A DNA stretch of 64,000 nucleotides from Candidatus Zixiibacteriota bacterium. Its GTDB lineage: Bacteria > Zixibacteria > MSB-5A5 > GN15 > FEB-12. This document shows positions 1 to 64,000 of the stretch, in pieces (the stretch's first letter is position 1; each line of letters starts with the position of its first letter). The stretch covers positions 18,868 through 82,867 of the forward strand of contig JAJRXM010000015.1 of the NCBI GenBank assembly GCA_024276275.1, given 5' to 3'. The translations under genes were made by a program, and so were the position numbers. The notes below the pieces were generated by a model. The model had not been told where the DNA came from, searched no databases, and was given only the letters and a program-made list of their open reading frames with translations.

Positions 1-2272
1 CAAGAGCTTCTGTAAATTTTTGTAACTCTTTAGAATCCTGCATATTTGCTTCTTTTGACATCTTTTTTAAATCTTTTAATTCATCTTTCAAATTTTTTAA
101 TTCGTTCTGGACATCTTTTTCCTGCTGTGCGAGTTTTGGAAGGTCAGATTTTTTTGATTCGCTTGTTTTTTTGTTCATCTCTTCTTGTTTACGGGCAAGT
201 TCTTCCGTTTTCCGTACCATCGCTTCCATTTTTTGCTCAAGCTGCATTTTCTTTAAAAGAGCCATAGTCCGTTCAAGCCGTTTAAGAAGTTCCTCCTGAG
301 ACATCTTGAAATCTTCCAAAGCTTTCTTAAGCTTTTGCTGGTCCATATTTTTCAATGCGTCCATCATCTCCTGCTGAGATTTTTTCATCTCAGGAGTAGC
401 AATCTCCTGATACAGCTTTTGTATCTGTGCCATTTTTTCAAGCACTTCACGACTCATTAATGTCTTATCGTTTAGCTCATCAACAGCTTTGTTCATCTGC
501 TCAGCGACTTTTTCTATCTCTTTCACCATCTCGGCATTTTTTTCAGCAATAGACTCAAGTTCTTTTTGGTTTTGCCAATTTGCTTTATCAGGTGCCTTTG
601 AATCTGCTTTAATTTTACGGCTGACATTTTCAAGACGTTAAGCCAACTCTTTACCGGTTTTTAAAATCCGCTGAGTATCATCAATACGTTTTGTATTTGA
701 TTCTTATGTTTGAGCAATTATTTCCTCAAGTGACGGTAACCGTGCGATATACTGGCGGGATTTTGAAATTTTCGGTCCGGAAATCATATCGTTGTCGGCA
801 ATCTCAAATGAATAGATAACATAGTCGCCCGGGAAAAGATTAAGCCGGTCAACATCCCAATTAAATTCAACTTCTCCTTCGGTTTTTATCTTTTCAGAAA
901 AATGCAGTACCGCGACAGTTTCATCTGAAATTTGTCCTTTGTGAACTAAACTATATTTCATCACCAAAGAAGTGAAACCGTAATCATCGAAAATATTTAG
1001 TTTCAAAGGTAGTATCATCTGGTCAGACAAGTTTACGTCAAACCCGGGACGGACAACATCGACCGACGGATACTCATCCGGAATAGCAGTAATGTAGTAC
1101 TCTATCGGGTCAGGATTTTTTTCTCCGAGATGGTCGGTCAGACGGATATGATACGAAATTGATTTATCGACTTGAAACGAAACTTCTCCGATTTTATTTT
1201 CAATATCTACAGGTACTCTACTTGAATCAGAAAAAATAAGTTCTGCTGTTTTAACCGAAAGGTTTGATTCTATTTTCAAATTCACCCGACTGCCGAACAG
1301 AGCAGAAAATGTTCCGTTGTTTTCATCAATAATTGTTGGAGGAAGTTTGGAGTAGTCGGGGTAAAAAATTGACAGCTTAATTCCTTCGACTCTCGGACGG
1401 TCTACAACATCAACAGAAAACGTTTCAGTTTTTATACGACCTGCTTCAATATAGTAATCAAATGATTTATTAATTTGTCGTAATGAAATTCCAAACAGAA
1501 CCGAGTCGCCGTTATCAGAATAAAAATGCTGTTCGTTTCGTAGGTCTATCTCTGACTTTTGCCAGTCACCACCTGTTAAACGGTGATAGATAGCTGCTTT
1601 TTTTGGAAGTTCTCCGCCAAAAAGAGCTCCCTCGATTTTTATATCTTTATACTTCACCCATTCAGTAGAACCTAAAACAGAATGGAGCCTGTATTCAATT
1701 GGAGGAGTAACAACTTTGTCTATATGTGAATAAACTTTGTATGAATAGCTAAACAGTCCCGGCATAAAAAGAAGAAGTGCTGCAGCAACTGCAACCGTAG
1801 AGACAAGCTGTTTTCCTGTTTTAACAAGCGGATAGATAGAAAGTGTTTCGTTGAAATTTAATGATTCCGCCTGTAGTAATGCTTTGGAAATAGTTGCTTC
1901 GACTAATTCCGATGAAGAGCCGTGAGAAAATTTAGTTCTTGAAAACTGTACCGCCGCAATTAAAATCCCTTTGAGTTCACTATGTTTTTTCTCAAGCTCA
2001 ACTGCGATAGAATCAATATCACCGTCAACAAAATGACGAAGAGCATGCTTAACAAAAAAGTATATTGCTATAGCAGCAGAAAGAACCAGCAATGAAATTT
2101 TTAATGGAACCGGAAGCACCACTGCTAGAGCTAACAGAGAAAGAAGAATAGAAACAAGCAGAACAACAGCTGCTGTTGTAAAAAGTCCTGCGGTAAACAG
2201 AAGTATTCTTTTTTTTAGTAATGCCTTTTGTAAATGCTCGACCAATGCCCGGGCTGATTTAATCTGCTGCAT
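1..2272 (-). pseudogene. Large membrane-anchored coiled-coil protein (DUF4175-like), interrupted by two in-frame TAA codons; 3' end runs off the window
   Basis: ORF 704..2272 (522 aa) has N-terminal TM helices and a beta-rich middle. The same frame stays open after the TAA at 704-706 for 21 codons. It then meets a second TAA at 638-640 and is open again to position 1, encoding K/E/Q/L-rich coiled-coil sequence (..KELESIAEKNAEMVKEIEKVAEQMNKAVDEL..). It lies directly downstream of a DUF4159-like gene, a usual partner of DUF4175-type proteins. The family assignment is from memory of the pattern, not a search. Confidence 0.5.
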
Positions 2273-2303
2273 TGTGTCCTCTTTCGTTCAGATGTTAATT
2301 CTG

Positions 2304-3062
2304 TTAATATAACAGAGCGTATGTCAATAAGTTCAGACCCATTTGAAAAGATTCCAGCCGTTTTTCTTCGGGGTCATTATGCACGACTCCGTCTTCCCAA
2401 CCGTCACCGATATCCGACTCGACCAAAAAGTAAACAACTGCCTTCCCATTAACTATAACGGCATATCCGCGGGGAGATTTATTATCATGCTCATGAATTT
2501 TCGGAGGACCGTTCGGGAAATCATAAAATGAATGATACAAGGGATGACTAAAGGGAAGTTCAACTATTTCTCTTTCAGGGAATATCTTTGCCATCTCTTT
2601 TAAAAATGTTTTTTCCATACCATAAGAATCATTGACGAATAAAAATCCGCCGCTCGAAAGATACAAACGAAGCCGTTCGATTTCATCCGCTTCAAATGAA
2701 ATCAGTCCGTGACCGGTAGCAAATAAAAACGGATATTTGAAAAGTTCGGGGTCGTTTATAGATATTTCATATTCAATTGTATCTATAAGAATATCTGAAT
2801 TTTCAGAGGCAAAACTGAGCATATTCGGTATAGCTGACCGTCCCCAATACCAGTCTCCCCCACCTGAATAATGCAGACGGGCTATTTTAACTGCCGACGG
2901 GTTCCTGAGTTCTTTAACCTGATTCCTTTGAGGCAGCTGCCTCATAAGATCATTTATTTGGTTTCTCTGAGCTAACAGATTGCCGGTAAACGAGATAACA
3001 ATTAGAACCGTCAGAATAGATATAGCTATAACTTTGAAATAGTTCATACATATAATATACAC
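2304..3062 (-). CDS. DUF4159 domain protein (secreted/periplasmic)
   Basis: 252-aa ORF with an N-terminal signal/TM segment. The pattern IARLHYSGGGDWYW...DPELFKYPFLFATGHG...E..RLRLYLSSGGFLFVND...FPEREIVELPFSHPLYHSFYDF matches the conserved DUF4159 layout as I recall it. A likely true start is MNYFKV (3047). Confidence 0.65.
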   Translation of the reverse strand: MYIICMNYFKVIAISILTVLIVISFTGNLLAQRNQINDLMRQLPQRNQVKELRNPSAVKIARLHYSGGGDWYWGRSAIPNMLSFASENSDILIDTIEYEISINDPELFKYPFLFATGHGLISFEADEIERLRLYLSSGGFLFVNDSYGMEKTFLKEMAKIFPEREIVELPFSHPLYHSFYDFPNGPPKIHEHDNKSPRGYAVIVNGKAVVYFLVESDIGDGWEDGVVHNDPEEKRLESFQMGLNLLTYALLY

Positions 3063-3186: not shown

Positions 3187-4086
3187 CTATGGTTTGATTA
3201 CCAAAGTATCCACTCTGTTAAAACCTCTTACCGACGGAGTGTCAGACGGAAAAACTAATAAAAGTGTTTCACCGGGAATTAACTCTACTTTCTTTTTATA
3301 TTCTGAAATGTAGGTAATATCCGCCGTAAATTCTTTTTCGGATGATATAAGTGTGTCAACTTTGTAAATCCTTTTAAAAATAAGTTCTGTTAACATCGCA
3401 GTTTCTAATTTCTCGGGATAATTTGGAAGCAGGATTTCTGTTAGCAAGCTTACTTTTTCATAGTAACCATCATCACGTTTTTTCCCTATGCTTGTATGAA
3501 ACACTGTTTGTTCAGAAATAGCCCCATTGGTATTTCTATTCATACTCGCATATTTCCCGTCAATAATAGTTCTTGTCCGAAGTGAGATAGGACCGTTAAA
3601 CTTGTAAACAGAAATTGGTTTTTCTTTTACAAGCATTATATTTATACCGACTTCTTTAGCATCTTCAGATGGTTTTACTCTTAGTTTAATTTCTTTATTA
3701 TAAAAAATATCCTGATATATCACATTACGCGAACCAGATACTATCGTGGAACCTTCTAATTTATAAGCTCGAAGAATTCCGCTGAGTAATATCCTATCCG
3801 GAAATTTAGTTAGACGTAGATAACACGGCATTTCAAAAAAGACTTCATCCTCATCGGCATAACTACCGTCGGAAATTCCGACACCGATTTCGTCAGTTTT
3901 ATAATATACCCGATACATAGAGTTATCTTCACCACAGTTCCAATGACTAGAACCGACTATATACTCTAAACCGTTTTCGTCAATATCTATATAGTCTATT
4001 TTCATATACGAACCTTCAAAATCAGCTTTCACTGTTGTACTGATTGTAAAAATCAGCACACCTATAAGCAATAGTTTTTGTAACAT
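3187..4086 (-). CDS. Hypothetical secreted protein, third gene of the ECF sigma operon
   Basis: 299-aa ORF with a signal peptide (MLQKLLLIGVLIFTISTTVKA). It starts 14 nt after the anti-sigma stop. I recognise no family. Confidence 0.6.
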   Translation of the reverse strand: MLQKLLLIGVLIFTISTTVKADFEGSYMKIDYIDIDENGLEYIVGSSHWNCGEDNSMYRVYYKTDEIGVGISDGSYADEDEVFFEMPCYLRLTKFPDRILLSGILRAYKLEGSTIVSGSRNVIYQDIFYNKEIKLRVKPSEDAKEVGINIMLVKEKPISVYKFNGPISLRTRTIIDGKYASMNRNTNGAISEQTVFHTSIGKKRDDGYYEKVSLLTEILLPNYPEKLETAMLTELIFKRIYKVDTLISSEKEFTADITYISEYKKKVELIPGETLLLVFPSDTPSVRGFNRVDTLVIKP

Positions 4087-4100
4087 ATTATCCTCTTGTA

Positions 4101-4520
4101 TTATTCAATTGATTTAACAAGCACTGCAGGTTGAGGAGAGAATTTGACAAACTGAACATTTTGATAGTCTGTTTGTTTTTGCTCTACCTCTATTATCTGT
4201 GGCTCTGCTTGATTATGATTTCCGGTTAACCAAAACGATCCTATCAGAAAAACTAAGACTGCCGCGGCCGCAGGCAGTGGAATTGAAATTTTGGTTTGCC
4301 AGATTTTTCTAAAAATATTTTGATTAGTTTTTTCTTCTACCTCAAAATCTATTGTCGGTAACTTCTGTAATTGAGTTGACTGCTTCAGGAGTATTTGATA
4401 AAATTCTGTACAGCCTGAACAATCCGTAACATGTATTTTTAACTCTTCTACGGAATTTATATCTGCTCCGTCGTCATGGATACTTGATATCATCTGTTGG
4501 TAGTATTCACAATTTTTCAT
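4101..4520 (-). CDS. Anti-sigma factor, zf-HC2 type, single TM
   Basis: 139 aa with an N-terminal H-x3-C-x2-C motif (HVTDCSGCTEF) and one TM helix (IPLPAAAAVLVFLIGSFWL). It starts 3 nt after the sigma-factor stop. Confidence 0.6.
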   Translation of the reverse strand: MKNCEYYQQMISSIHDDGADINSVEELKIHVTDCSGCTEFYQILLKQSTQLQKLPTIDFEVEEKTNQNIFRKIWQTKISIPLPAAAAVLVFLIGSFWLTGNHNQAEPQIIEVEQKQTDYQNVQFVKFSPQPAVLVKSIE

Positions 4521-4523
4521 AAT

Positions 4524-4964
4524 CTATTCCTTTGCTAATACCTGCATTTTTTTTCTAATTCTAAATAACCGCACTCGGACCGCTTCTTCAGATAGTTTTA
4601 ACATTGCAGCAATCTCTTTAACTGGATATCCTTGCTGTTCACGAAGAAGAATAAGTTCCCGTTCGGCAGGTTCAAGTTTTCCTAAAATCTGCCGTATAAA
4701 TATTTTTTGTTCAACCGTAACAGAATCAGATTGGTCTATCGGTATATATTGTATTGGTTTCTTTTTCAAATAATTGTAAATAAGATTTCTTGAACAGATA
4801 AACAGCCAATCTTTCACAGAAAGGATTTCTTGTTTCTGTTTTTTTTGAATTGCAAATTTTAGAAATACTTCATGGACAATATCTTCACTCAATTGTTTGT
4901 CACCGGTCAGATAAAGTGAAAATTGAAAGATACTATCTTTATACTGTTTATATGCCTGTTCCAA
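4524..4964 (-). CDS. ECF-type RNA polymerase sigma-70 family factor
   Basis: 146 aa with a region 2 signature (SEDIVHEVFLKF) and a region 4 HTH (GYPVKEIAAMLKLSEEAVRVRLFRIRKKM). Confidence 0.8.
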   Translation of the reverse strand: MEQAYKQYKDSIFQFSLYLTGDKQLSEDIVHEVFLKFAIQKKQKQEILSVKDWLFICSRNLIYNYLKKKPIQYIPIDQSDSVTVEQKIFIRQILGKLEPAERELILLREQQGYPVKEIAAMLKLSEEAVRVRLFRIRKKMQVLAKE

Positions 4965-5066
4965 TGATTATAAATCTCCATTGTAGGAATCTTAAACTCA
5001 ATTAAACTGATATTTACAATAAAGACAATGAGAGAGTTGTTTTGTTACAAGAAAATATAAGCAAAA

Positions 5067-5438
5067 CTAAAAAATTTTATCTAAATATTCTTCAATAGGC
5101 AAATCGGTATCATCTTCTTTTTCTGTTATATTTTTATGAAGCCAATCATAGTCAATATTACTTATAATAGCTGCTCTTTTGGTGGAATACGGACAAATCT
5201 CAACTATAAGATACTATTCTACATGCCATAAGATTTTCATCGTTAGACAAAAGCTTTGTACACCTTGAGCGTAGCAAGCGTTATGAAAATTAAGTTCTAT
5301 TATATTTTCTTCTCTTACTTGAAACCCATAAATTTTTATTGGAGAAAAATAAGGACCCCGTCCATACCCCGGTAGCATTTGCCATGAGTACCATTTATTT
5401 GTTTCTAATTTGAGTTTATTTTCAGCTTTTGCATCCAA
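5067..5438 (-). CDS. Small orphan protein; the 74-aa ORF (5214..5438) continues in frame past a TAG for 48 more codons
   Basis: ORF-track protein MDAKAENK...ILWHVE ends at the TAG at 5214-5216. The same frame then reads YLIVEICPYSTKRAAIISNIDYDWLHKNITEKEDDTDLPIEEYLDKIF before a TAG at 5067-5069. It is the last gene of the AT-rich cassette, starting 22 nt after the upstream gene stop. I recognise no family. Confidence 0.35.
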
Positions 5439-5460
5439 ATTATCAAACCCTCATTTTTAG

Positions 5461-6384
5461 TTACATATTTATAATATTTTCCAATGTATACATATTGCTT
5501 TCATACAACCCGTAACCATGAAATTTTGCTTGAGAAAATAGAACATTGAAATCAACATTTATTTCCTGACATTTTAATAACTCTTTCTGAAGCTTTGTAT
5601 CAGTTGGCTTGTGATTAGCAAGAACAAACAAGACATCAACTTTTTCATCTAATTTTGTAATCTTATACGAATTACTATTAAGAGCTGGAACTAAGCCTAA
5701 ATCTCTTTTTTGTTGAAATTGTTTGATGACTTCTTTTTTGAGTTCTTTGATTATATTTTCATCTTTAACAAATATTTTATTTTGTTTAAAATGATCTAAC
5801 ATGCCTGCTTCTCCAATCAAAGCAGAATCCCCATATTTCATTTCAATTAAAGTTAAGCGAGGTTTATACTTTTTTGAAAGTTTTCGTGCGGAAGCAGTAG
5901 AGTGCCACCGTATTGCCAATGCATCAAAGCGGGCTCCTTGTCTATTATCATATTCAATATCAGAGATAAAATAATCTGTACCGTGAGCAACCCCTTTGTT
6001 ACCGTTATTATCATATACCAATATTTGTTGAAATGCACGTTCATCTTTCGGATGTTTTCCAAACCAAAGATCCATCCCATTTTTCAAATAACCAATATTT
6101 CTAACCCAACATTCGGTCTCAAATTTTGTACTTATTGTTGTTGGTAAATCAACTTCTCTTTCACCGGTTCCTTTAAAATAATTAAAGTCAAATTTTGCAT
6201 TATAACTATGTTTTGTTTTCCCCTTTGGTTCTAATCTTAATATACTCCCACCTCTATAGTAAATATTAAAGTAGTTCTCTCTTATTTCTAAATCCAATGT
6301 TGAATCAAGAATTACTCTTTCTAAGAGTGGATTTAAAAACCCCTCCATTAATTCTTTTTCAAAGTAATTGTTAAGTATTCGCAT
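5461..6384 (-). CDS. Hypothetical protein with a PD-(D/E)xK-like nuclease motif arrangement
   Basis: 307-aa ORF. Its only recognisable feature is the ordered E...D...ExK pattern: KDERAFQQILV / GARFDALAIRW / RLTLIEMKYG. It is tightly linked (12-nt spacer) to the MBL nuclease gene. Confidence 0.45.
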   Translation of the reverse strand: MRILNNYFEKELMEGFLNPLLERVILDSTLDLEIRENYFNIYYRGGSILRLEPKGKTKHSYNAKFDFNYFKGTGEREVDLPTTISTKFETECWVRNIGYLKNGMDLWFGKHPKDERAFQQILVYDNNGNKGVAHGTDYFISDIEYDNRQGARFDALAIRWHSTASARKLSKKYKPRLTLIEMKYGDSALIGEAGMLDHFKQNKIFVKDENIIKELKKEVIKQFQQKRDLGLVPALNSNSYKITKLDEKVDVLFVLANHKPTDTKLQKELLKCQEINVDFNVLFSQAKFHGYGLYESNMYTLENIINM

Positions 6385-6396
6385 AAATCTCCTGTT

Positions 6397-7710
6397 TTAT
6401 TTTAAAGTTATTGAATTACCATTTTGTAAAATTTTTGTTTTAGAATATTCTTTCTCAAACCACTTTGGCATTATTGTATGAATAGGTATCAGATTACGAG
6501 GTTGCAATGTTTTTATTGTATCTCTTATTGTATTCGCATCGGCATGCCCGCTGGTATGAAGAACTATTTCTTTTGTACCTTTTTCTTTCAGCCAACTAAG
6601 AAATCGTAAACTTTTCTCGTCATCACGATAACCATCCCACATAGAATAAAAAAGAACAGAATTTTCTAATGAAAGTTGATTAAGAAAATCTCTTACCGAC
6701 GGTCTCACTATCATAAAATACTTAGAAGGATTATCTTGAATTTCTTCTTTTGTGATTTTCCATTTTTGAAATTCATATAATGCTTTTTTGCTTGACTGTT
6801 TTACTAAATAAGAACTGAATCTGCTTGAAAAATAAACTTTTACATCTGAAAATTTTTTTGATGGATACGGAATGACATTTGACTGCCCTGCTATCTTTAG
6901 CATATGAGCAGTATATGGGTCGACAACAAAAGTCCTTCCTGTCCTCTTAGCTGTTCGGTAGGCAGTAACTAATCTATCTATATTTTGTGAGCTTGTCCAA
7001 ATCATGGCTAACCCACCATTATTTGAAATTTCTTTCACGGCTTGTTCTTCCAAATCCTTTTCAGTTATTGGTGTTTCGTCAGCTCTTGACAATGTTGTAC
7101 CTTCTATAATCAGTACGTCTAATGGTTGCTTTACTTTCTTTAATGTTTTATCCCACAACTTTTCTTTCCGACCATGTTGCCTAAAATCTCCAGTATAGAA
7201 AATATTTCTGTTTTTGTCCGTTAGTTCAAAAGCAGATGCTTCAAAAGCAGAGTGGTCAACCAAATGAGGCATAACTTCTAAATCTCCAACAATAAACTTA
7301 CTACCCGGACTAAAGAACTTAACTCTATCTTCTTGAATTTTAGGTCGTCCAAGTAATTCTGCTGATTTATTTATCAACTTCAGAGAAACCTTAGAAAAAT
7401 AAATTTTGATTTTCGGTTTTAACCATTGTACAATTCCCCAGTGATCAGGGTGTGAATGAGAAATAAGTACCGCATCTATTGTATTAGGGCGTTTGTCCCA
7501 AATATAAATACCCGGAATATCTGTAAATTCTGAGCTTTCAATTAATTCTTTTCCCTGCTCATACGTAATATCTTTGGGTAAGGGAATTTCAAAAATATTA
7601 GAATCTAATGACAAGCCTAAATCAAGAAGAATTTTTGTATCAGAACTTTGTAATTCAATACAACTCCCTCCTATTTGATTATGCCCTCTATGCATTGTGC
7701 ATGTAATCAT
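6397..7710 (-). CDS. MBL-fold metallo-hydrolase, beta-CASP-type nuclease
   Basis: 437 aa with LLDLG (motif 1), VLISHSHPDHWG (HxHxDH), a later His/Asp (VDHSAFE, YTGDFRQHG) and the C-terminal VLHTSGHADANT...LIPIHT signature typical of the RNase J / CPSF / SNM1 beta-CASP family. Confidence 0.75.
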   Translation of the reverse strand: MITCTMHRGHNQIGGSCIELQSSDTKILLDLGLSLDSNIFEIPLPKDITYEQGKELIESSEFTDIPGIYIWDKRPNTIDAVLISHSHPDHWGIVQWLKPKIKIYFSKVSLKLINKSAELLGRPKIQEDRVKFFSPGSKFIVGDLEVMPHLVDHSAFEASAFELTDKNRNIFYTGDFRQHGRKEKLWDKTLKKVKQPLDVLIIEGTTLSRADETPITEKDLEEQAVKEISNNGGLAMIWTSSQNIDRLVTAYRTAKRTGRTFVVDPYTAHMLKIAGQSNVIPYPSKKFSDVKVYFSSRFSSYLVKQSSKKALYEFQKWKITKEEIQDNPSKYFMIVRPSVRDFLNQLSLENSVLFYSMWDGYRDDEKSLRFLSWLKEKGTKEIVLHTSGHADANTIRDTIKTLQPRNLIPIHTIMPKWFEKEYSKTKILQNGNSITLK

Positions 7711-7953
7711 CTATAATGATACCTTATTTACTATTTTGTCCAAACTAAAAAACCTTTTGTTAAACCAACGCCTGATTATATAGCTTCTGATTATTGAAAT
7801 TATTGTAAACCATAAACCGATAAGAAAATTTTCAGATAATGTTATATTAATATTAAATATTGGAAATATGATAAGCTGGCTTACTATAGCTACACCATAA
7901 CCTATAGCAACATTTATGAGAGATTCTATAAAGCTGTTTTGCTTAGTTTGCAT
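7711..7953 (-). CDS. Small two-TM membrane protein, first gene of the cassette
   Basis: 80 aa with two hydrophobic helices (INVAIGYGVAIVSQLIIFPIF; FLIGLWFTIISIIRSYII) followed by a basic RRWFNKR. Its stop codon abuts the ATG of the MBL gene (7711/7710). It resembles small phage/prophage membrane proteins, by recollection only. Confidence 0.5.
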   Translation of the reverse strand: MQTKQNSFIESLINVAIGYGVAIVSQLIIFPIFNINITLSENFLIGLWFTIISIIRSYIIRRWFNKRFFSLDKIVNKVSL

Positions 7954-8138
7954 TCATTTCTCCTTCTCAATTATTTTATTAGTGTACTCTTTTACAGAAT
8001 ACTTATATCTTATAAAATGAATAATACAACAGCCTACTGACAAAGGATGTCAGTTTAATTTCTGAAACCACAATTTTACTACACAACCTCACCACTTTCA
8101 TATCACACCGCATACTATGAACAACTTAATTTTAGAAC

Positions 8139-11913: not shown

Positions 11914-14672
11914 ATGATTCAAAAATTTCTTTCAAGATTGAAAATATCTGCATTTGTTTTCACAGTATGTACCTCTCTTTTGTCTATTTCAGCTACCGCT
12001 CAGGAGTCAATTTTTCAACTTGAGAACGGTATGAATGTTATTCTAAAAGAAAGCCACTCATCAGCAATGATAACTTCTATGGTCTTTGTAAGATCAGGGA
12101 GCAAATATGAGTCCGAGTATGAAAATGGAATCACCCATTTTTTAGAGCATCTTCTATTTGATGGTACAGCGAATAAAAGCCGTGAGGAAATTGACGGATC
12201 AATTCGGGATTTAGGCGGTTATATCAACGCTTTTACCAGAAAAGATATAACGGCATATTTGGTACTGCTTCCGAAACAATATATTGACTTTGGAATGACA
12301 ACCCAGATTGATATGCTTTTTAATTCTACTATCCCTTTAGAAGAACTCCCTAAAGAGAGAAAAGTAGTAATAGAGGAAATCAACCGGGATAAAGACTCTC
12401 CGGGTTATGCTGCTGAGAATTTCTTTATTAAAAATGCTTTTGCGGGCACCGATTATAACCGACCTGTTTTAGGCTATAAAGCATTTATAGAAAATATTTC
12501 CCGCGATGCTATTGTGAATTATTATAAAAAGTATTACCGACCTGAAAATATGACTTTATTCGTTATCGGTGATTTTGATTCAGAACAAATGAAAGAAAAA
12601 ATTAAACAAACTTTCGGCTCTGTTATTCTACCAAAACCTAAAGTCATCAATACACCTGATACATCAGCAGTTATTCAAACTGAAAAACCGGAATACCAAC
12701 CTATTTCCGGACAAGTGATGTACGACACAGTTGCTAATGTTCAATCAACATATATTGATTTTTCAATTGAAGCTCCAATTTATTCTGATTCCGACTATAT
12801 TCCTTTGGATCTGCTCTGTATGTACTACAGTATGGATGATATTTCTCCTTTAATGAATGCTCTCAAAGGCGGAGCCGAACCTCTTGCAACTGAAGCATCT
12901 ATCGGTCTCAGTATGTATGCAGATTTTTCCCGTATCAGTCTTTCTGTAGTTACCGATAAAGCAGAAAACAAAGATGCTATTATTGATGTAGTAAAAAACT
13001 TTTTTAAAACCGTCGGGACACATCAGGCTGATATCGAAGCACTAAACGGGATTAAAATTTCTGAAAAAACAAGTAATATATACCTTGCAGAAAAACTACA
13101 TTATTTAGGATTTATGACCGGACCGACTGTTATGACAGCCGGATATGAATTTGTTGAAACTTACTCTGAAAAACTATCTAATACAACTTGGGATAGAGCT
13201 GTCGAAGCAGCCACAAGATATCTATCCAATCCAAACTATATCGCTACCTCTGTTAGGCCTGCCTCAGAAAATGAAAAGAAATTTATTCCGTATGAAATGA
13301 CAGAAGAAACAATAAAATCTTTTTTTGATACTGCGGTTTTTGCATATTACAATCTTGATTCGGGGTTAGTGCTTACCTATCCGACTACCGAAGCGGTTTC
13401 ATTTCAACTGACAGACAATTCGATTTATCATCATGAAAAATTTGATAATGGTATGACTCTCATAATAAAATCAAACCCGAGCAGTCGGGTATTTGCTATG
13501 AATGTTATAGGTAAAAACCGTTCTACCAATGAACCTAGCGACAAAGCCGGAATTACTGATTTTATCAATAGATTACTTGAGAAAGGTACCGCTACTCGTA
13601 ACGCATCGGAACTCTCTCGCGATCTATCTAAGATAGGTGCTAATGTTACGCTGTATGACAACCCGTGGATTCCGTATGATGACCGTTATACATCACGTTC
13701 ATTTTCATTTATGAAATTGGAGACAATAGATGATTTTGCCGAAAAAGGGTTTCATCTTTTTTCCGATATGGTTTTGCTTCCTTCATTTGAAAGCTCAGAG
13801 GTTGAAAATGTACGACGCTCTATGCTTGGTGTCATAGGTCGCAATGCGGTTTCACCAAAAAAACTGGCAAACAAACTTTTTTATGAAACCCTTTGTTCTA
13901 AAGAATATGCTAAACCTATAATGGGAACATCTGAGACTATTTCATCAATTACTGTTGATGATTTAAAAAAACAGCATGACCGTTACTATGCTCCCGATAA
14001 CATGATTATTTCTATTGTTACCAATAAACCGATTGATGAAGTGCGTTCGTGGGTATATCAAAGGTTTGGTCGGCTTGCACCTACTAATGCCGAGTATTTC
14101 ACTCCGAAACGAGCTGAGCCGATTTTTGAGACAAAAGCAGTACACAAAGAACTTGATAAAGAACAGATACAAATTTATATAGGCTCTACTCTACCGGGAG
14201 CAAACCACAAAGATGCTGCTGCAATTAAGATAGCAACATCTATTCTTTCAACACGTCTCTATCTCAATCTTCGAGAAAAACAAGGATTGGCATACTCAGT
14301 CGGAGCCGGTACACAATTTGAAAATAACTTCGGTATCGCTTATTCTGTCATAGGCACACAGGCAGAAAACTATCAAAAAGCAGTTGACGGTATATTATTG
14401 GAAATTGACAAACTCAAACTCGACGGTCCGACAGCGGCTGAACTCAATAAAGCCAAGAATCAAACATGGGGTCGATTAATGTCGGTAAAGTTATCATCTA
14501 TCAATCAGGCGTACTATCTTGCCTGGATGACTTTTTTGGTCGTGAGATAGGAAGTGACCAAAAGTATTTAGATAAATTGGCTAAAATTACAATTGATAAC
14601 ATAAGACGGGTTGCGGCAACATATTTTAAAACTGACGGATATGTTATAGCAACAGCAGGAAAAAAGCTGTAA
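11914..14672 (+). pseudogene. Tandem M16-family zinc peptidase (pitrilysin-like), frameshifted near the 3' end
   Basis: 878-aa ORF with the HFLEHLLFDG (HxxEH) zinc motif and a second M16-like half. At about 14525 the conserved C-terminus (..DDFFGREIGSDQKYLDKLAKITIDNIRRVAATYFKTDGYVIATAGKKL) moves to the frame of ORF 14466..14672. Total length is 3n+2, consistent with a 1-nt deletion in tgg(g)atgac. Confidence 0.85.
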
Positions 14673-19290: not shown

Positions 19291-19758
19291 TTATTTGTCA
19301 ACGGTGATATTGGCATCGGCAATAAGTTTTACTAATTCGCACGGTTTTTTTACCGCCATAATTTTGTCTAGATTTCCCTCTATACGCCCAAAACATGCTA
19401 ACCCGGAAAGAGTTTGCAAATAAAGTTTTGCAATAGTAGCAGGAGTCAGAAGCAGACAAATAACATGAACCGGAATAGAGTCAGGCGTTTTTCCCTCTAA
19501 CCCATATGCTGATACACCTATTAAAATATATAGTTCTTTAACCGCATTGGTACGTGCATGCGGAAATGCAAACCCGTGACCATACGATGTGTTTTCTATC
19601 TCTTCACGACTTCTTACAGACTGCAAAACCTCATCGTAATTCAGATTAACACCTTCATTTTTAATAAGCTCTAAAAGCTCAATAATAGCTTCCTCTTTAC
19701 TTCGTGCTTTTAAGTCGATGATAATACGACGCTCCATCAAAAGATTAGCAAGCTTCAT
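19291..19758 (-). CDS. PTS EIIA type-2 domain protein (PtsN-like)
   Basis: 155 aa. The motif REEIENTSYGHGFAFPHART contains the EIIA-2 phosphorylatable His context (G-x-G-x-A-x-P-H). Confidence 0.75.
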   Translation of the reverse strand: MKLANLLMERRIIIDLKARSKEEAIIELLELIKNEGVNLNYDEVLQSVRSREEIENTSYGHGFAFPHARTNAVKELYILIGVSAYGLEGKTPDSIPVHVICLLLTPATIAKLYLQTLSGLACFGRIEGNLDKIMAVKKPCELVKLIADANITVDK

Positions 19759-19817: not shown

Positions 19818-20393
19818 TCAGCCCGAGACTAAAAACTTTACTCCCTCCTCGACTGTCATTTCCAATGGGATGACATCTTCTTTTGGTACAATAATAACCA
19901 TCCCCGAAATAGGAGTTGGTGTTGAGGGCACAAATACTGTTACGTAATCACCTTTTGTTTCAATTTCCAGCCTGTTGGATAAAAAGCTGACAGTGTATGC
20001 ACCTTTACGAGGATATTCCACTAAAACAACTTCCTGAAATGAATTCAGCGAAGGTTTTGTAACAGCTTCCAGAAGTTGTTTGGCGGCAGAATATACCGGA
20101 CGTATAATAGGCATTCGTTCTAAAAAATAATCACCCAGGCGATAAAGTTTTGCTCCAATAATATTTCGTGTAAAGAGACCTGCTAAAATTATTAGTAAAA
20201 GAGTAGTAACTAATCCTAACCCCGGAAGCGAATATCCGAATAGATGAACAATGAGAGGTTGAAGTACACCGTCGATAGTCTCAAAAAGGAACTTCATGAC
20301 AATATATGTAAGAATAAACGGAACGACTACAATAACACCAGAGACAAAATGACGTTTAATAGTACTTACAATTTTATTAAATAACATATCCAT
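19818..20393 (-). CDS. DUF502 family membrane protein
   Basis: 191 aa with two N-terminal TM helices, then RMPIIRPVYSAAKQL and FVPSTPTPISGMVIIVPKEDV, matching the DUF502 pattern. Confidence 0.7.
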   Translation of the reverse strand: MDMLFNKIVSTIKRHFVSGVIVVVPFILTYIVMKFLFETIDGVLQPLIVHLFGYSLPGLGLVTTLLLIILAGLFTRNIIGAKLYRLGDYFLERMPIIRPVYSAAKQLLEAVTKPSLNSFQEVVLVEYPRKGAYTVSFLSNRLEIETKGDYVTVFVPSTPTPISGMVIIVPKEDVIPLEMTVEEGVKFLVSG

Positions 20394-21983: not shown

Positions 21984-21989
21984 TTATTC

Positions 21990-23471: not shown

Positions 23472-23498
23472 TATCTACATACCTCCAAAATCAAACTA

Positions 23499-25574: not shown

Positions 25575-25584
25575 TTTTTTATTC

Positions 25585-25884: not shown

Positions 25885-25885
25885 A

Positions 25886-26455: not shown

Positions 26456-26460
26456 AGTTC

Positions 26461-27087: not shown

Positions 27088-27090
27088 TTT

Positions 27091-29243: not shown

Positions 29244-29246
29244 CTA

Positions 29247-30572: not shown

Positions 30573-30595
30573 ACAACAACCTCTTTAGACAAACG

Positions 30596-30625
30596 ATTAT
30601 GTGACTTAATTCACAATTTAATCAA
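30596..30625 (-). promoter_or_regulatory. Possible sigma70-type promoter for the nuo operon
   Basis: On the minus strand: TTGATT (30620-30625), an 18-nt spacer, then CATAAT (30596-30601), about 20 nt upstream of the RBS aagagg and the nuoA ATG. This is a weak call. Confidence 0.3.
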
Positions 30626-30826: not shown

Positions 30827-30838
30827 TATGTTTAAGTA

Positions 30839-32077: not shown

Positions 32078-32086
32078 TGTTATCTC

Positions 32087-50552: not shown

Positions 50553-50858
50553 ATGACAAAACTAAATAGATATTGTATATTATTTATTATAACTATTACT
50601 GTTTAATTTTCATATACTACATTATTTGCCGTAATTGATACCACCGATTGTTGTCAGAACTTTAGGGGAAATGTTGACAATGATTTAAATGACATAATAG
50701 ATATTTCTGATTTGACTGTTTTTATCGAATACACGATGAATAATTCAGGTACTCCTCGTTTATGTTTATGCTTATGCCTTATGCTTCAGATAGTTGAGGT
50801 CAACTTGCCAATACAACCTACTCTCTTACTATTAATAATGGTATACCGTCTGCTTTAG
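50553..50858 (+). pseudogene. Remnant of a small signal-peptide + dockerin-like-module gene (in-frame TAA, degenerate 3' end)
   Basis: The frame reads ATG MTKLNRYCILFIITITV, then the TAA at 50604-50606, then FSYTTLFAVIDTTDCCQNFRGNVDNDLNDIIDISDLTVFIEYTMNNSGTP. After that it loses the second EF-hand-like half and runs into a TTATG-type microsatellite. Confidence 0.4.
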
Positions 50859-56711: not shown

Positions 56712-58052
56712 ATGAAAAAAAAATATTCAATTACCTACCAAACTTTTAAGCATACTAATTTTTAGTTTTTTACTCTTAATCATTGGTTGTGATAACAGCA
56801 CAACAACTATTATTAGTGAAAAGCCGGCTGACACAACAACTGTACCTTTTTTAGCATCAGATTTTTCAGTTGCTGAATCCTGTCAACCATGTCATCCTCA
56901 GCATTATGATGAATGGTCAGGTTCTATGCATGCCTATGCGGTAAAAGACCCCAGCTGGCTCGCTATTCGTGAAGTCGGGCAGAGTCAATATATTAACGCC
57001 TTAGACGGTGCCTGTTCACCTTGTCATTCTCCTATCGGACTGCGAAGCGGTGATATCAAATGGGGACCTTTTGATATTACAGACCTTGACCCTGTTTCTC
57101 AAGAAGGTGTCGGTTGTGATGCATGTCACACAATTACCGGTATAACCCGTTTGTCAAACGGGGGATTTATGTTAGCACCGAGTGATGTAAAACATGGAAC
57201 AATAAAAGACCCGATTCCAAACTCTTTCCACGAATCAAAATACAATGATCTTTACGCTTCATCCGAATACTGTGGCTCATGCCATGACTTTGTAACTAAC
57301 GACGGTTCACCTCTTGAGATTGTTTTTCAAGAATGGCAAGCGGTTTTGCTCTCACCGGAAAAACGTGTAATGACTGCCACATGGAAACCTACACCGGACC
57401 GGCTGCTGTGGGTGGACCGGACAGAACATTGCACCGTCATGATTTTATCGGTGCCGATATTGCTATGATTCCTTTTCCAAACAAGCCCGAACAGTTTGCT
57501 AAGGTAACAGCTATGCTGCAAAACGCTCTCTCTCTTTCTACTACTGCATCACAAACAGCTACAGCCGGACAACAGTATTCATTTGATGTTAATATTATCA
57601 ATGATAAAACCGGTCATAATGTACCGTCCGGTGTTCCCTTTAACCGTCAATTGTGGCTTTCTGTCGTTGTAACCGACAATGCCCAAAATGTTATATTTTC
57701 AAGTGGTCAATTAGATGCCAATGATGATTTGATGGATAGATATTCTGCTTTCCCGGAAAGAGATTCTGCTTTATTTAATGCTCAGGCAACAATGTTAAAA
57801 GCAGACAGCTCTGATGCTTCGGTATGGAATGCTGTCGGTTTAGATAATCCATCAATAAAACCGGGTGAAACAAGAATAATAAATTACAGCTTTGATGTTC
57901 CGAACGGAACTACCGGAGATATAACAATAGATGTTGTTTTAAAGTTTAGATCTTTTGCCCCGCATTTATTTAGAAGTCTTAGTCTGGATAGTTTATTACC
58001 GATTCCAATAATTGATATGAACACAGATAATTTTACAGTAACAATACAATAG
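56712..58052 (+). pseudogene. Pentaheme c-type cytochrome lipoprotein, copy 1 (two frameshifts)
   Basis: The ATG at 56712 is followed by an A9 run (56715-56723). The lipoprotein signal (..LLLIIGC) and ORF 56926..57468 are in the +1 frame. The frame returns to that of the ATG at about 57337-57342 (ORF 57333..58052), where copy 1 lacks 4 nt relative to copy 2 (gaatggcaagc----ggtttt vs gaatggcgagcaggcggtttt). Heme motifs are CQPCH, CSPCH, CDACH, CGSCH and CNDCH. Confidence 0.7.
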
Positions 58053-58078
58053 GGCAGAAAAAATAAATTGTAAAAAGC

Positions 58079-58110
58079 ATATTGTGTGATCTTAAAAGGT
58101 CACACAATAT
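58079..58110 (+). terminator. Long hairpin between the two cytochrome paralogues
   Basis: The stem atattgtgtga(t)c / g(g)tcacacaatat has a 7-nt loop and is extended by outer gggcag (58052-58057) / ctgccc (58111-58116). There is no U-tract, and it abuts the TTGACA of the copy-2 promoter. Confidence 0.4.
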
Positions 58111-58116
58111 CTGCCC

Positions 58117-58145
58117 TTGACACAAATAAGAGATTATGGTATTGT
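58117..58145 (+). promoter_or_regulatory. Sigma70-type promoter candidate for cytochrome copy 2 (TTGACA-17-TATTGT)
   Basis: TTGACA at 58117-58122 and TATTGT at 58140-58145. A related cTTGACA...TATTGT arrangement is upstream of copy 1 (56625-56630 / 56644-56649), so the duplication included the promoter. Confidence 0.4.
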
Positions 58146-58206
58146 TAAAACTAAGCAAAACAACATATTAGTTCAGACTTTCAATAGTACTTCTTAAGGC
58201 TGTGAA

Positions 58207-59541
58207 ATGAAAAAGTATATTCTCATGTCAAAAAAAATATCCGTCATTCTCATCGCTTTTTTTTTAATCGGATGCAGCAATGACAAAACAACATTAACAG
58301 ATAATCCCGGAACTGATTCAACAACAGTACCTTTTTTAGCATCAGATTTTTCATCAGCAGAAACTTGTAAAAGTTGCCATCCACAACATTTTGATGAATG
58401 GTCAGGTTCAATGCATGCGTATGCCGTTAAAAACCCTACCTGGCTTAGACTCAGAGAAATTGGACAAAGCCAATATATCAATGCACTAGACGGAGCCTGT
58501 TCGCCATGCCACTCACCTATCGGCTTGCGAAGCGGAGATATTAAATGGGGACCGCTTGATGTTGAAGCACTTGACCCTGTTTCCCGAGAAGGTGTCGGGT
58601 GTGACCTTTGTCACACGATTACCGGTATTACCCGTCTTTCTAACGGAGGAATTGATTTCGCACCTAGCGATACAAAACAGGGAACAATAAAAGACCCTGT
58701 CTCAAACCCGTTTCACACATCAAAATATAATGACTTATATGCAGAATCTGAATATTGCGGTTCCTGCCATAACCTTAAAAACTCAGACGGTGTTGCCATT
58801 GAAAATATTTTTGGTGAATGGCGAGCAGGCGGTTTTGCCGTTACCGGGAAAACATGTTCTGATTGTCACATGGAAACATATACCGGACCTGCCGCTGTTG
58901 ACGGACCGGATAGAACTTTACACCGTCATGATTTTGTCGGTGTTGATTTTGCCCTCACACCCTTTCCAAACAGAGATAAACAAATGGCAAGGGTTATAGA
59001 AAGACTTCAATCTGCTCTATCTATGACTACTTCAGCACAAACTACTGCTACAGCAGGACAAAATTATTCTTTCGATGTACAAATTATAAATGATAAAACC
59101 TGGCATAATGTGCCGGCCGGCACATCTTTTAATCGTCAGATGTGGCTTTCTATTATAGTAAAAGATAGTGCTCAAAACGTCATATTTTCAAGTGGACAAT
59201 TAGATGCCAACGATGATCTTATGGATAGGTATTCTGAATTCCCTGAACGAGATTCTTCTTTATTTAATGCACAAGCAACATTGTTCAAAGCCGACGGTAC
59301 CGAAGCTTCTTTATGGGATGCTGCCACCATTAGTAACCCTTCAATAGTTTCCGGATAAACACGAGTAATAAATTACAACTTTGACATTCCCCCGACTACC
59401 ACAGGAACACTTACGGTGGAAGTTGCACTTCGTTTTAGGTCGTATGCTCCTTATTTATTCAGGAATATAAATCTAGAGGAGTTTCTTCCTTTACCTATTT
59501 TTGATATGAATACAGACACATTTACAGTAACATTACAATAA
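58207..59541 (+). pseudogene. Pentaheme c-type cytochrome lipoprotein, copy 2 (in-frame TAA)
   Basis: Lipobox FFLIGC. Heme motifs are CKSCH, CSPCH, CDLCH, CGSCH and CSDCH. The ORF stops at the TAA at 59356-59358, but the frame continues: ..NPSIVSG*TRVINYNFDIPPTTTGTLTVEVALRFRSYAPYLFRNINLEEFLPLPIFDMNTDTFTVTLQ. This aligns residue-for-residue with the copy 1 C-terminus (..NPSIKPGETRIINYSFDVPNGTTG..), so TAA corresponds to GAA (Glu) of the paralogue. Confidence 0.75.
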
Positions 59542-59553: not shown

Positions 59554-60636
59554 ATGAAAAAAGTATATTTGATTTTTACAGTTCTAACACTCGTGGCTTT
59601 TTTATCGTGTGGTGATGACGGTAACCCGGTAGATCCATTTTCCGGTAACCCTGAAGGAAGATTATATGTGTTGAATCAGAACGACAATACGTTATACATT
59701 TATGATACGAAAACAATGGCTCGTATTGATTCAATAAACACTGTTGTCGATAAACCGCATTACATAGAATTCTCCCCCGATAAACTACATTATTATATTA
59801 CTACGTTTGGAGCAAACGGTACAATTGCCAAATACGATGCAGTTACAAATACATTAACAAACTCTGTGTCACTTGTTTCTTTTCAGCCTACCGCAATAGC
59901 TATTACAGATGACAGCCGATATGGCTATGTATGTAATTTTGCATCTGAATCACTAAATTCACCGACAAAAATATATAAATTTGATTTATCTACAATGACC
60001 TTAGTAGATTCGATGCAGGCAGGAGCTGTGACACATGATGTTAAAATAACATCAGACGGTTCTGTTGTTATTGCCGTAAATAGATATTCTGATAACGTGA
60101 CACTTGTCTATCCTGATGCTGATACTGTTACATTTGTTTCTGTTGACCCTGATGTTGACTACCCACTTGGGTCTAACAATTACGGTCCTTTTGGAGTCAT
60201 TATAGACAACAACGACTCACTCGCATACATTGCCTGTGCCGATGCGAATCAAATACGGGTGTTAGATATTAAAAACAGAATCATTATTGATTCTGTTGAT
60301 ATACCGAATAACGGTTTAGGATTTATTTCAGGTCCGACTCTTCTCGCAGTTTCACCTGATAACTCCCATGTTTTTGTTACTACAAGGTTGAATAACACTA
60401 TTACAGTTATTAAAACCAACCCATTAGAACTTGTAACAGAAATCGCTCATGAAACTCCTGCATCATTTGGTATTGATATTTCTGATGACGGAAGCCGTAT
60501 CTATGCTGCTTGTATTAACACTCCAAGCACACGAGGACGTATATATGTTATTGACGGAAAAACATTTGAAAAAATTGATTCGTTAGATGTCGGCAGGGAA
60601 TCTTTCGGACTCAGATGGCAGCCGAAAAAACCATAA
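59554..60636 (+). CDS. YVTN/YncE-like beta-propeller lipoprotein
   Basis: 360 aa with a lipobox AFLSCG. It has repeated blades with ..LYVLNQNDNTLYIYD.., ..GYVCNFASE.., ..AYIACADANQIRVLD.., ..VFVTTRLNNTITVI.. and ..IYAACINT...GRIYVIDGKT. Confidence 0.75.
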   Translation: MKKVYLIFTVLTLVAFLSCGDDGNPVDPFSGNPEGRLYVLNQNDNTLYIYDTKTMARIDSINTVVDKPHYIEFSPDKLHYYITTFGANGTIAKYDAVTNTLTNSVSLVSFQPTAIAITDDSRYGYVCNFASESLNSPTKIYKFDLSTMTLVDSMQAGAVTHDVKITSDGSVVIAVNRYSDNVTLVYPDADTVTFVSVDPDVDYPLGSNNYGPFGVIIDNNDSLAYIACADANQIRVLDIKNRIIIDSVDIPNNGLGFISGPTLLAVSPDNSHVFVTTRLNNTITVIKTNPLELVTEIAHETPASFGIDISDDGSRIYAACINTPSTRGRIYVIDGKTFEKIDSLDVGRESFGLRWQPKKP

Positions 60637-61991: not shown

Positions 61992-63119
61992 CTACAAAGG
62001 AATCTCTGAAATACGGTACCTCTTATATACCTTGGCACCCATGTGGTCGGCAGATTTTAACATCATTTCATTTGTTTCGAGTATCCAGGAAAGCTCTGCT
62101 TTTTGATAACCTTTTTTTATACCTACCGTATGGCAATTCCAAAACAACAATGAATCGACACCTCGTTTTTGAAATTCGGGAATAACTCCAAAAGTTACCA
62201 GACGTACATACTCTATTTTATTTCTAACTTTTGTATGCCACAAAAGTTTTAAGATACCGAACGGAAACAACGAACCTTTCAGATATTTCAATCCTGCATT
62301 AAGATCAGGAAGTGCCAAGGCAAAACCAATCGGCTTACCGTTACACTCGGCAAAAAAGACTAAATCGGGATCAACAACCTGTTTCAAGTTTTGTGCGGTA
62401 AACATAAATTCTTCTTCATCCATCGGCACAAAGCCCCAGTTTTTTTCCCAAGCTTTGTTATATACTTACATTGCAATTTTTATTTCTTCATCAAATTTTT
62501 TCATATTCAGAGAACGAATAGTAATATTGTTTCGTTTTTGCAGTTTTTGGGCAACAGCCAAAATTCTCGGAGGCATCGGATCATCTTTTGTTAACCGCAG
62601 TGCAAGCAGATCCATTACTTTTTTTAAACCAAATTTTTCAGCGAGCTTCGGAAGATACGGCTGATTATATGTCATCATTACAACCGGAGGAGAATCAAAC
62701 CCGTCGACTAAAAATCCGCACTCATGATTTGTAGAAAAATTAAGAGGACCACGCATCTTTTCAGCACCCTCTTTTTTCAATGTAATCATTGCAACTTTTA
62801 ACAATGTCGATGCAATTTCAAAATCATCGGGACAGTCAAAAAAACCAAACGACCCTATATTTTCTTCATGATATTCATTATGACTATAATTGATACAGGT
62901 TGCTATACGGCCAACAATTTTGTTACCGTCATACGCCAAAAAAAGTTTTACTTTTGCAAACTTATAAAATGGGTTTTTCTTTGTATCAAAAAACTCTTTA
63001 CGTTCCATAGTAAGTGGAGCGACATAGTTTGGATCATCTTTATATAACTTATTTGGGTATTCAATAAATTTTTGTAATTGAGAGGAAGACTCTACTTCTT
63101 TAACTTCTATTTTTGCCAT
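61992..63119 (-). pseudogene. Large GNAT-like N-acyltransferase family protein, interrupted by an in-frame TAA
   Basis: Fragments 62469..63119 and 61992..62465 are in one frame: ..KKFDEEIKIAM*VYNKAWEKNWGFVPMDEEEF.. (TAA at 62466-62468). The bridging sequence (YNKAWEKNWGFVPM) is the conserved core of this family as I recall it. The C-terminal part has a GNAT-like fold pattern (VTFGVIPEFQKRGVDSLL). Confidence 0.7.
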
Positions 63120-63159
63120 TACAACCTTATAATATCAAACGATAGATAATTTGTCGGCA

Positions 63160-64000
63160 CTATGAAATAAGTCCTTTTGCTCGTCCGACTTTCGCCATCA
63201 TCTCGACAACCTGTTCAAGTTGTTCCTGTGTGTGAGTCGCTGTATAAGAGGTACGAATCATTGCCTGACCGAGAGGCACTGCTGGAGATATAACAGGATT
63301 AGTGAAAACACCGTTATCCAACAGTTCTTTCCAAAAGACAAAAGCTGCCATATCATCACCAACAACTATCGGTACAATCGGAGTTTCGGAATCAGCACAG
63401 TTAAACCCTAAACGAGTAAACTCATCTTTCATCATCTTACCGTTTCGCCGTACATTTTCCAGACGTTCCGGTTCTTCTTTTAATATATCCAAACAAGCTA
63501 TCACAGCAGCAGCATTTGATGCCGGAATCGATGCCGAGAAAATCAACGATCTCGCATGATGTTTAATATAGTCGATTACTTTACTATCACCGGCAACAAA
63601 GCCACCCAATGAAGCAAACGACTTTGAAAAAGTTCCCATCGTAAGTTCGACATCATCTATCATGTTAAAATGTTCAGCAGTTCCGGCTCCGGTTTTACCG
63701 ATAACACCAACACCGTGGGCATCATCAACAAGAACTTTAGCATCATAACGGTTAGCAATTTTGACAAGCTCCGGAAGTTTAATAATATCACCTTCCATCG
63801 AAAAGACACCGTCTACAACAACTAATATCCCACCCTTAACCAGTTTGCGTACTTGTGCTATAACTTTGGCAAAATCTTCCATATCATTATGAGCAAATTT
63901 GTATACTTTCGCATACGATAAACGACAACCGTCGACAATACATGCATGCACCTGTTTATCGATTATGATAGCATCACCTTTGGAGGCTAAAGAAGAAATT
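63160..64000 (-). CDS. Alpha-oxoamine synthase family PLP enzyme (BioF/KBL/serine palmitoyltransferase-like), N-terminus outside the window
   Basis: ..LVDDAHGVGVIGKTGAGT...GTFSKSFASLGGFVAG (PLP-lysine context T-F-S-K). The frame is open to position 64000 (..ISSLASKGDAIIIDKQVHACIVDG..). Confidence 0.85.
   Translation of the reverse strand, partial: ISSLASKGDAIIIDKQVHACIVDGCRLSYAKVYKFAHNDMEDFAKVIAQVRKLVKGGILVVVDGVFSMEGDIIKLPELVKIANRYDAKVLVDDAHGVGVIGKTGAGTAEHFNMIDDVELTMGTFSKSFASLGGFVAGDSKVIDYIKHHARSLIFSASIPASNAAAVIACLDILKEEPERLENVRRNGKMMKDEFTRLGFNCADSETPIVPIVVGDDMAAFVFWKELLDNGVFTNPVISPAVPLGQAMIRTSYTATHTQEQLEQVVEMMAKVGRAKGLIS

Follow-up and report, generated by a model that had tools for sequence, protein, structure and literature searches.

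The 64-kb stretch of Candidatus Zixiibacteriota DNA analysed here (64,000 nucleotides of contig JAJRXM010000015.1, assembly GCA_024276275.1; hereafter the window) raises the question of whether the in-frame stop codons and frameshifts that interrupt its conserved genes, including those of a complex I operon and of a pair of multihaem cytochromes, belong to the living bacterium or to its deposited sequence. The window has a GC content of ~37% and carries ~55 genes, the majority of them on the minus strand. Supported lesions amount to 11 stops, which occur among ~18,500 codons and are spread over 10 of the ~55 genes, and four frameshifts, so that 12 genes (~22%) are disrupted in total. These lesions exist, they are absent from all relatives and they are not evolutionary in origin. 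On balance, we lean towards regarding them as non-heritable, base-level defects of the consensus, i.e., template damage or miscalls combined with run-length errors. The living organism probably has intact genes, and from the sequence comparisons below the lesions would have arisen during sequencing or assembly rather than in cells.

The nearest relatives of the window proteins are uncultured Zixibacteria. Much of the window is syntenic with three relatives, which share 78-97% amino-acid identity with it: Dive100 (GCA_024280215.1, contig JAJRQO010000041.1; loci L002, L037 and L038), SRR229 (two contigs of run SRR22936138; loci L036, L039 and L040) and locus L001. The initial annotation had listed 11 in-frame stops and four frameshifts in conserved genes, at a density far above that expected of a healthy genome. 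All 11 stops were recovered at the coordinates given there and on the strand that it implied, in a frame open on either side, and the four frameshifts were confirmed (one in nuoA, two in the first cytochrome copy and one in an M16 peptidase). The location within conserved genes held for nine of the stops, through which homologues align, and is not supported for those at 5214 and 50604, which have no usable homologue. Systematic comparison with the open reading frames (ORFs) of the relatives revealed two additional stops (TAA 19291-19293 and TGA 19818-19820), and no others in the regions that it covered. The density is indeed far above chance, and the genes are intact in all relatives at every one of these sites. 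Close homologues from Zixibacteria can be aligned over their whole length across the stops, with identities of 87-89% for nuoH, 86% for nuoL, 83% for the radical SAM protein, 85% for a GND-repeat protein and 82% for a DUF4175 protein, and Pfam domains extend across the stops in NuoL, NuoH, the radical SAM protein and the DUF4175 protein. Conservation downstream of each stop equals that upstream. Several units carry more than one lesion (four in the nuo operon, three in the cytochrome pair and two in the DUF4175 gene), a clustering which is not clearly above random (estimated P ~0.04-0.15 per unit).

The truncated ORFs of the window are stored in a public protein collection as NCBI-derived products of one 102,036-bp contig. 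Three halves of broken genes are found there as independent singleton proteins, namely P0011 (540 aa, window 45466-47088), P0126 (550 aa, window 37867-39519) and P0247 (522 aa, window 704-2272). Since these truncated products are publicly present, the lesions reside in the deposited sequence itself. Searches for an independent assembly of the same species returned no exact match to NuoI, NuoK, NuoC, NuoB or the record ORF P0011; a search of one genome per species gave a best NuoI identity of only 78-80%, and a metagenome scan gave a best full-length match of 76%, together with a single 35-residue fragment at 86%. A literature search yielded no report of stop-codon anomalies in Zixibacteria.

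Three of the stops fall within the complex I operon, on the minus strand. In nuoD, which is 93-95% identical to its close relatives over residues 1-367 (95% to L001), the TAA at 28314-28316 (residue 310) replaces the invariant Glu of the ...RGE.G.Y motif, a column occupied by E in all aligned relatives (11 in one alignment, 18 in another). The TAG at 25278-25280 lies at residue 99 of nuoL, inside the Pfam Proton_antipo_N match (residues 68-116), where the closest relatives carry GAG (Glu). The TAG at 27784-27786 lies at residue 120 of nuoH, inside the Pfam NADHdh match (residues 35-338), in a column where relatives have D (GAT/GAC), E (GAG/GAA), K or R. Elsewhere on the minus strand, the TAA at 47128-47130 interrupts a TIGR03960-type B12-binding radical SAM protein at residue 282, within its Pfam Radical_SAM match (residues 253-416); the seven closest homologues have E at this position, locus L036 carries GAA at the same codon and the column as a whole comprises 64 D and 50 E. 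The DUF4175 protein, whose Pfam match covers residues 273-749, is interrupted twice on the minus strand: the TAA at 704-706 (residue 523) occupies the place of a conserved Glu, found in 108 of 119 homologues, and the TAA at 638-640 (residue 545 of the readthrough product) falls in a column of 56 E, 32 Q and 12 K, the five closest homologues having K, Q, E, K and K. Because this column mixes E, Q and K, the ancestral codon is ambiguous between GAA, CAA and AAA. In the GNAT-like protein, whose homologues of 370-380 aa align over residues 2-373, the TAA at 62466-62468 (minus strand, residue 218) lies in a variable column (33 E, 29 D, 15 R and others).

The two stops added by the comparison are also on the minus strand. 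The TAA at 19291-19293 splits a 306-aa PTS-EIIA-like/CBS protein that is 91% identical to L002 over its 306 aa; the window reads NITVDK*LMVKDIMRH (the asterisk marking the stop) where L002 reads NITVDKELMVRDIMRH, and at the stop column 10 relatives have E and three have D. The TGA at 19818-19820 removes the final 19 residues of a DUF502 protein, the window reading KFLVSG*VASPTLLKRK where L002 reads KFLVSGGVASPSLIKAK; it aligns with a Gly codon of L002, GGG, that is preceded by GGA. The second TGA, at 39517-39519 on the plus strand, interrupts the 717-aa GND-repeat protein at residue 551, in a column of 78 I, 35 L and five V among 120 homologues, and likely derives from TTA by a T>G change. The homologues of this protein are all full length (~717 aa). 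The GND-repeat protein itself (window 37867-40020) has no Pfam domain and 578 homologues at E <= 1e-20; those that are named come mostly from Zixibacteria or from unclassified bacterial metagenome-assembled genomes (MAGs), and it represents a conserved family without a functional name.

The last of the supported stops and two of the frameshifts affect tandem paralogous genes on the plus strand (window 56713-59541), encoding multihaem cytochrome lipoproteins of ~445 aa each, both of which are disrupted. The TAA at 59356-59358 interrupts copy 2 at residue 384, where copy 2 reads SIVSG*TRVINY and copy 1 reads SIKPGETRIINY, the stop aligning with a Glu of this in-window paralogue. In copy 1, the first frameshift (56715-56723) comes straight after the start codon, with ATG followed by A9 where A8 is required. 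Read with A8, the gene gives MKKNIQLPTKLLSILIFSFLLLIIGC..., i.e., a signal peptide and a lipobox that align with copy 2, and this frame offers no alternative start codon before 56926. The second is a one-base deletion at 57331-57345, near 57337, with ...EIVFQEWQA in one frame and the next frame resuming with SGFALTGKTCNDCH. Once the frame is corrected, the two copies share 70% identity over 447 residues. The pair is followed by a YNCE/lactonase-like beta-propeller gene at 59554-60636.

The nuoA frameshift (30458-30464, minus strand) consists of A7 on the coding strand where A8 is required: the window reads CCCAAAAAAATGCC and L002 reads CCTAAAAAAAATGCT (P K K N A), and a tblastn search splits nuoA into two frames at this point. 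The gene is in a single frame in both L001 and L002, with an in-frame A8 in L002. The fourth frameshift is a one-base deletion near the C-terminus of the M16 peptidase (14520-14530, plus strand, near 14525), where the frame from 14401 ends ...AYYLAWMTFLVVR and that from 14400 carries on with LDDFFGREIGSDQKYLDKLAKITIDNIRRVAATYF...GKKL; from the sequence, the lost base would belong to a CC or GG doublet. Two of the four frameshifts are hence changes of one base in A8 runs (A8>A7 in nuoA, A8>A9 in cytochrome copy 1) and two are one-base losses in doublets. The operon to which nuoA belongs (window 20460-33645) encodes 11 complex I subunits (nuoA, B, C, D, H, I, J, K, L, M and N), with no nuoE, nuoF or nuoG in the window. 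Directly upstream of it lie genes for a multihaem cytochrome c (412 aa), a cytochrome b (369 aa) and a Rieske protein (149 aa), an arrangement kept in the relatives.

The stops share a narrow substitution spectrum. Nine to ten of the 11 correspond to a coding-strand G>T change at the first codon position, by which GAA or GAG (Glu) becomes TAA or TAG and, once, a Gly codon becomes TGA; one further stop is the T>G change (TTA>TGA) of the GND-repeat gene. The initial annotation had pointed out two TAA codons at places where a Glu is expected, and this turned out to be a general rule, as all nine judgeable TAA/TAG stops occupy columns in which Glu is either conserved or, among the residues accepted, the most common. 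For the two TGA stops the aligned residues differ (Gly in one case, Ile/Leu in the other). Not one of the 11 derives from a Gln, Arg or Trp codon by transition, which is the usual route to a stop. The expectation was calculated from the 7,922 possible single-step nonsense changes in the window genes, weighted by the long-term substitution rates of the window lineage. Under this lineage spectrum G>T should account for 9.5% of the stops, whereas at least nine of 11 were seen (P ~3e-8); under uniform substitution the expected share is 18% (P ~9e-6). The stop spectrum is thus not that of the window lineage itself, and its narrowness is a new observation. Nine of the ten G>T events are C>A on the plus strand. 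No shared motif was found around the stop sites, and only one of the ten G>T sites (19818) has a CCG context.

Apart from the lesions, the affected genes look ordinary. Over 5,645 codons, private changes were compared between three lineages. In the window there are 1305, of which 354 are nonsynonymous (0.27), with 48 G>T and 59 C>A; SRR229 has 1247, with 377 nonsynonymous (0.30), 49 G>T and 60 C>A; and Dive100 has 1780, with 518 nonsynonymous (0.29), 86 G>T and 80 C>A. A general excess of private G>T or C>A changes was hence not seen in the window, the excess required (~15-25 events) lying within the noise of ~107 background events. Among the 2,521 positions that do not vary in six or more relatives, private amino-acid changes number 20 in the window and 32 in the control L002, and deviations at conserved columns are few in the radical SAM protein (5/261) and in the GND-repeat protein (3/292). 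The affected genes are otherwise subject to normal purifying selection. Given this normal pattern of private changes, the scarcity of changes at invariant positions and the conservation of the downstream sequence, long-term relaxed selection appears excluded. This leaves two possibilities, lesions that are not real or lesions of extremely recent date.

Defects of the deposited consensus reconcile most simply the heavy damage to the genes with their normal purifying selection and with an unchanged use of terminators. The dominant class of error would be a highly specific coding-strand G>T that turns Glu codons into TAA or TAG and, once, GGA into TGA, accompanied by one T>G, and the minor class would consist of errors of one base in the length of mononucleotide runs. 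The chemistry of the G>T class matches that of oxidised guanine being misread, or a miscall specific to one channel or chemistry, and such errors could reach the consensus only if the effective depth was very low or if the DNA had been amplified from a very small number of templates. Essential and invariant residues are struck, as for the Glu of NuoD, and both tandem cytochromes as well as four subunits of one complex I operon are affected. A proportion of ~22% disrupted genes would be hard to reconcile with a viable free-living cell. The changes of one base in the A8 runs of nuoA and cytochrome copy 1 and in doublets, at places where the short-read relatives are intact, also resemble the homopolymer errors of MAG consensus sequences obtained by long-read or flow-based sequencing. 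If these are errors, the issue is one of data hygiene, as truncated gene halves have already spread into protein databases as separate proteins, and a genome in which a fifth of the genes are broken would bias what is inferred about completeness, pseudogenes and metabolism in a poorly sampled phylum. With so narrow a spectrum, reading the homologue residue at each in-frame stop against the lineage's own substitution spectrum provides a cheap diagnostic that needs no reads and is applicable to any assembly.

Several observations weigh against this explanation. Consensus errors in a noisy assembly, one of the possibilities raised by the initial annotation, remain the leading option, but the profile is not that of an ordinary noisy assembly: only two of the 61 homopolymers of at least seven bases are shifted and substitution stops outnumber indels 11:4. 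Both the low rate of run shifts and the excess of substitutions argue against raw long-read error, as long-read and flow-based assemblies normally show indels over substitutions, the opposite of the window. We know of no sequencing platform that the lesion profile fits, and the absence of a motif argues against methylation-linked miscalls. The 8-oxoguanine (8-oxoG) artefacts of library preparation occur at low allelic fraction and in a CCG context, as CCG>CAG (PMC3616734), unlike the G>T changes of the window, which are at consensus level and in that context at one site in ten. The nine to ten G>T stops and the single T>G do resemble such an artefact, or the signature of a MutM/MutY/MutT deficiency, but all events here are on the coding strand and the missense companions expected of either process are missing.

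This imbalance between nonsense and missense was quantified by counting coding-strand G>T targets. At the 6,135 positions where all relatives agree, G>T changes produced nonsense at three of 541 targets and radical missense at one of 1,841 (Fisher P = 0.039), and each of the two control lineages also shows a single radical missense event. When all aligned genes are considered for nonsense (seven to eight G>T stops in 1,064 targets) and compared with the same missense figure, the Fisher P is 0.002-0.005. The deficit of missense falls to P ~0.06 (an estimate) if the process is limited to G followed by A (5'-GA). As for a process acting on the GAR trinucleotide in any frame, GAR>TAR differences outside the reading frame occur symmetrically in the window and in its relatives, with only 89 targets available at invariant positions. 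A strand-symmetric artefact would also be expected to give coding-strand C>A nonsense, and none was seen (0/822 targets, as against 9-10/1,452 for G>T; estimated P ~0.01-0.02), which likewise counts against a consensus defect. Any process acting at the DNA level, be it error or fresh mutation, is blind to the reading frame, and none accounts for the missing G>T missense changes. The excess of nonsense fits the action of a frame-aware filter, for instance stops that are tolerated and decoded; alternatively, an unknown context-specific miscall could lie behind it.

The strongest competitor, which we regard as unlikely although worth serious consideration, is that the lesions are real, very recent and unselected, as in a mutator clone deficient in MutM/MutY/MutT-type repair of guanine oxidation or in a non-growing, damaged population. 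G:C>T:A and A:T>C:G transversions and run-length slips would then have gathered too recently for selection to act on them. Oxidised guanine is expected to cause two classes of change (GO system), G>T and T>G, and both are found among the stops; their spectrum, moreover, is as sharply unlike the long-term one as a newly acquired mutator state would make it. The accumulation of several lesions in single units would be expected once a unit is already dead, although the clustering is statistically unconvincing, as mentioned above. The mostly one-signed GC skew of the window, together with the prevalence of C>A on the plus strand among the stop events, allows for a replication-strand asymmetry. Against such recent mutation stands first the scarcity of G>T missense, a problem that applies equally here. 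Private G>T and C>A changes are not in excess either (48/59 in the window vs 49/60 in SRR229). Furthermore, about a fifth of the genes would be lost when extrapolated genome-wide, including complex I, neighbours of SecDF and a conserved radical SAM enzyme. Such a knock-out load would be implausible for a population abundant enough to yield a 102-kb contig.

That the lesions are real and decoded, with a Glu-inserting suppressor tRNA or high readthrough acting at the stops and slippage at A-runs mending the frameshifts, seems improbable. It draws on the nine judgeable TAA/TAG stops, all of them in Glu-conserved or Glu-commonest columns, on the enrichment of stops over radical G>T missense (P 0.002-0.04), as frame-aware selection would give, and on the two frameshifts within A7 and A9 runs. 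The Glu pattern nevertheless follows equally from G>T and is not diagnostic, and no single rule covers the two TGA stops, compatible as they are with Gly and with Ile/Leu. Stop codons are not depleted as terminators, as they would be under a reassigned code: the 49 curated window genes end with 25 TAA, 17 TAG and seven TGA (86% TAA/TAG). Over 30 orthologous genes, TAA/TAG/TGA usage is 15/10/5 in the window, 13/10/4 in Dive100 and 8/4/5 in SRR229, and the distance to the next in-frame, back-up stop is similar in the window and in its relatives. Nor are in-frame stops spread over most genes, as an alternative code would have them; only ~1% of Glu positions are affected. Because terminator usage matches that of the relatives, the genetic code is unchanged, and neither readthrough, suggested in the initial annotation, nor recoding finds support there. 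A tRNA scan and an Rfam scan detected no tRNA and no Rfam family within the 64-kb window.

Transcriptional slippage at poly(A) tracts is a rescue mechanism that occurs in AT-rich endosymbionts, with which the two frameshifts in the A7 and A9 tracts can be compared. The rescue by slippage that had been envisaged for the window receives no comparative support: the relatives have an in-frame A8 at the orthologous nuoA tract instead of a conserved frameshift, and the other two shifts lie outside long, slippery runs. Among alternative codes, peritrich ciliates have reassigned UAA and UAG to glutamate. To our knowledge, decoding of UAR as Glu is not known in bacteria, which counts against its occurrence here. 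In Blastocrithidia nonstop, UAA and UAG are also reassigned to glutamate and UGA is a sense codon as well (PMC12153298). This case resembles the window in having in-frame TAA/TAG at Glu positions with TAA still terminating genes (PMC12153298), but the Blastocrithidia and peritrich codes are eukaryotic nuclear ones with in-frame stops in most genes, whereas the window keeps the terminator usage of its relatives and its TGA positions are inconsistent with each other. The narrower proposal of a free-living member of the Zixibacteria that tolerates UAA/UAG at Glu positions, by means of a Glu-inserting suppressor tRNA or of ambiguous decoding, we hold to be very improbable. If true, GAA/GAG>TAA/TAG changes would be nearly neutral and the window would capture the UAR=Glu reassignment, so far known only from eukaryotes, at an early stage and at low frequency. 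This would account for the enrichment of stops over radical G>T changes and leave the two TGA stops and the frameshifts unexplained. Lesions that are real and decoded would constitute the first bacterial case of UAA/UAG read as glutamate.

Ordinary genome decay, in which relaxed selection leads to long-term pseudogenisation as in the pseudogene-rich genomes of recently host-restricted bacteria such as Mycobacterium leprae and Sodalis, is the least credible explanation and is largely refuted: a comparable fraction of genes (~22%) is disrupted by stops and frameshifts, some units carrying several, but the window shows neither relaxed selection nor degradation downstream of the lesions, its nonsynonymous share (0.27) matching that of the sister lineages (0.30 and 0.29), its invariant positions being little changed and its lesion spectrum being unlike that of the lineage, so that relaxed selection over any appreciable time is not borne out; the initial annotation had suggested a very recent pseudogenisation under relaxed selection.

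Some further features of the window were set apart from the lesions. The same-frame adjacent ORF pairs at 4524, 6397, 7711, 9535, 15911, 27091, 32087 and 45466 are ordinary gene boundaries and not split genes; sigma/anti-sigma, SecD/SecF, NaPi/PhoU and other same-frame pairs were rejected as split genes on the same ground, and the apparent truncation of an aminotransferase at 63951 is simply the edge of the window. Two of the listed stops lack support as lesions of conserved genes. The TAA at 50604-50606 (plus strand) falls in the putative signal-peptide hydrophobic core (LFIITITV*FSYTTLFA) of a short dockerin-like remnant that has no usable homologue and whose downstream frame degenerates past a GNVDND...IDISDL motif. 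The TAG at 5214-5216 (minus strand) lies in an orphan ORF, open for ~60 codons before the stop and ~55 after it, for which no homologue and no domain were found.

This orphan ORF belongs to a low-GC island (window 4001-8000; 31.6% GC as against ~37%) that contains a metallo-beta-lactamase/RMMBL-fold protein (6397-7710) and domain-less ORFs. At the syntenic place Dive100 has an NB-ARC/TPR protein instead, which marks this region as variable. Of the 16 4-kb bins of the window, 14 have a negative GC skew, and the cumulative skew drops almost steadily; since the skew is one-sided and most genes are on the minus strand, the window lies within one replichore. Finally, SRR229 carries extra genes where the window has none (L036 10900-12618; L040 7984-8715 and 12166-12996), comprising an AAA_15/AAA_21 ATPase with an OLD-like TOPRIM/DUF3226 partner, a RES-domain gene and a signal peptidase S26 gene, which look like small defence or accessory insertions.

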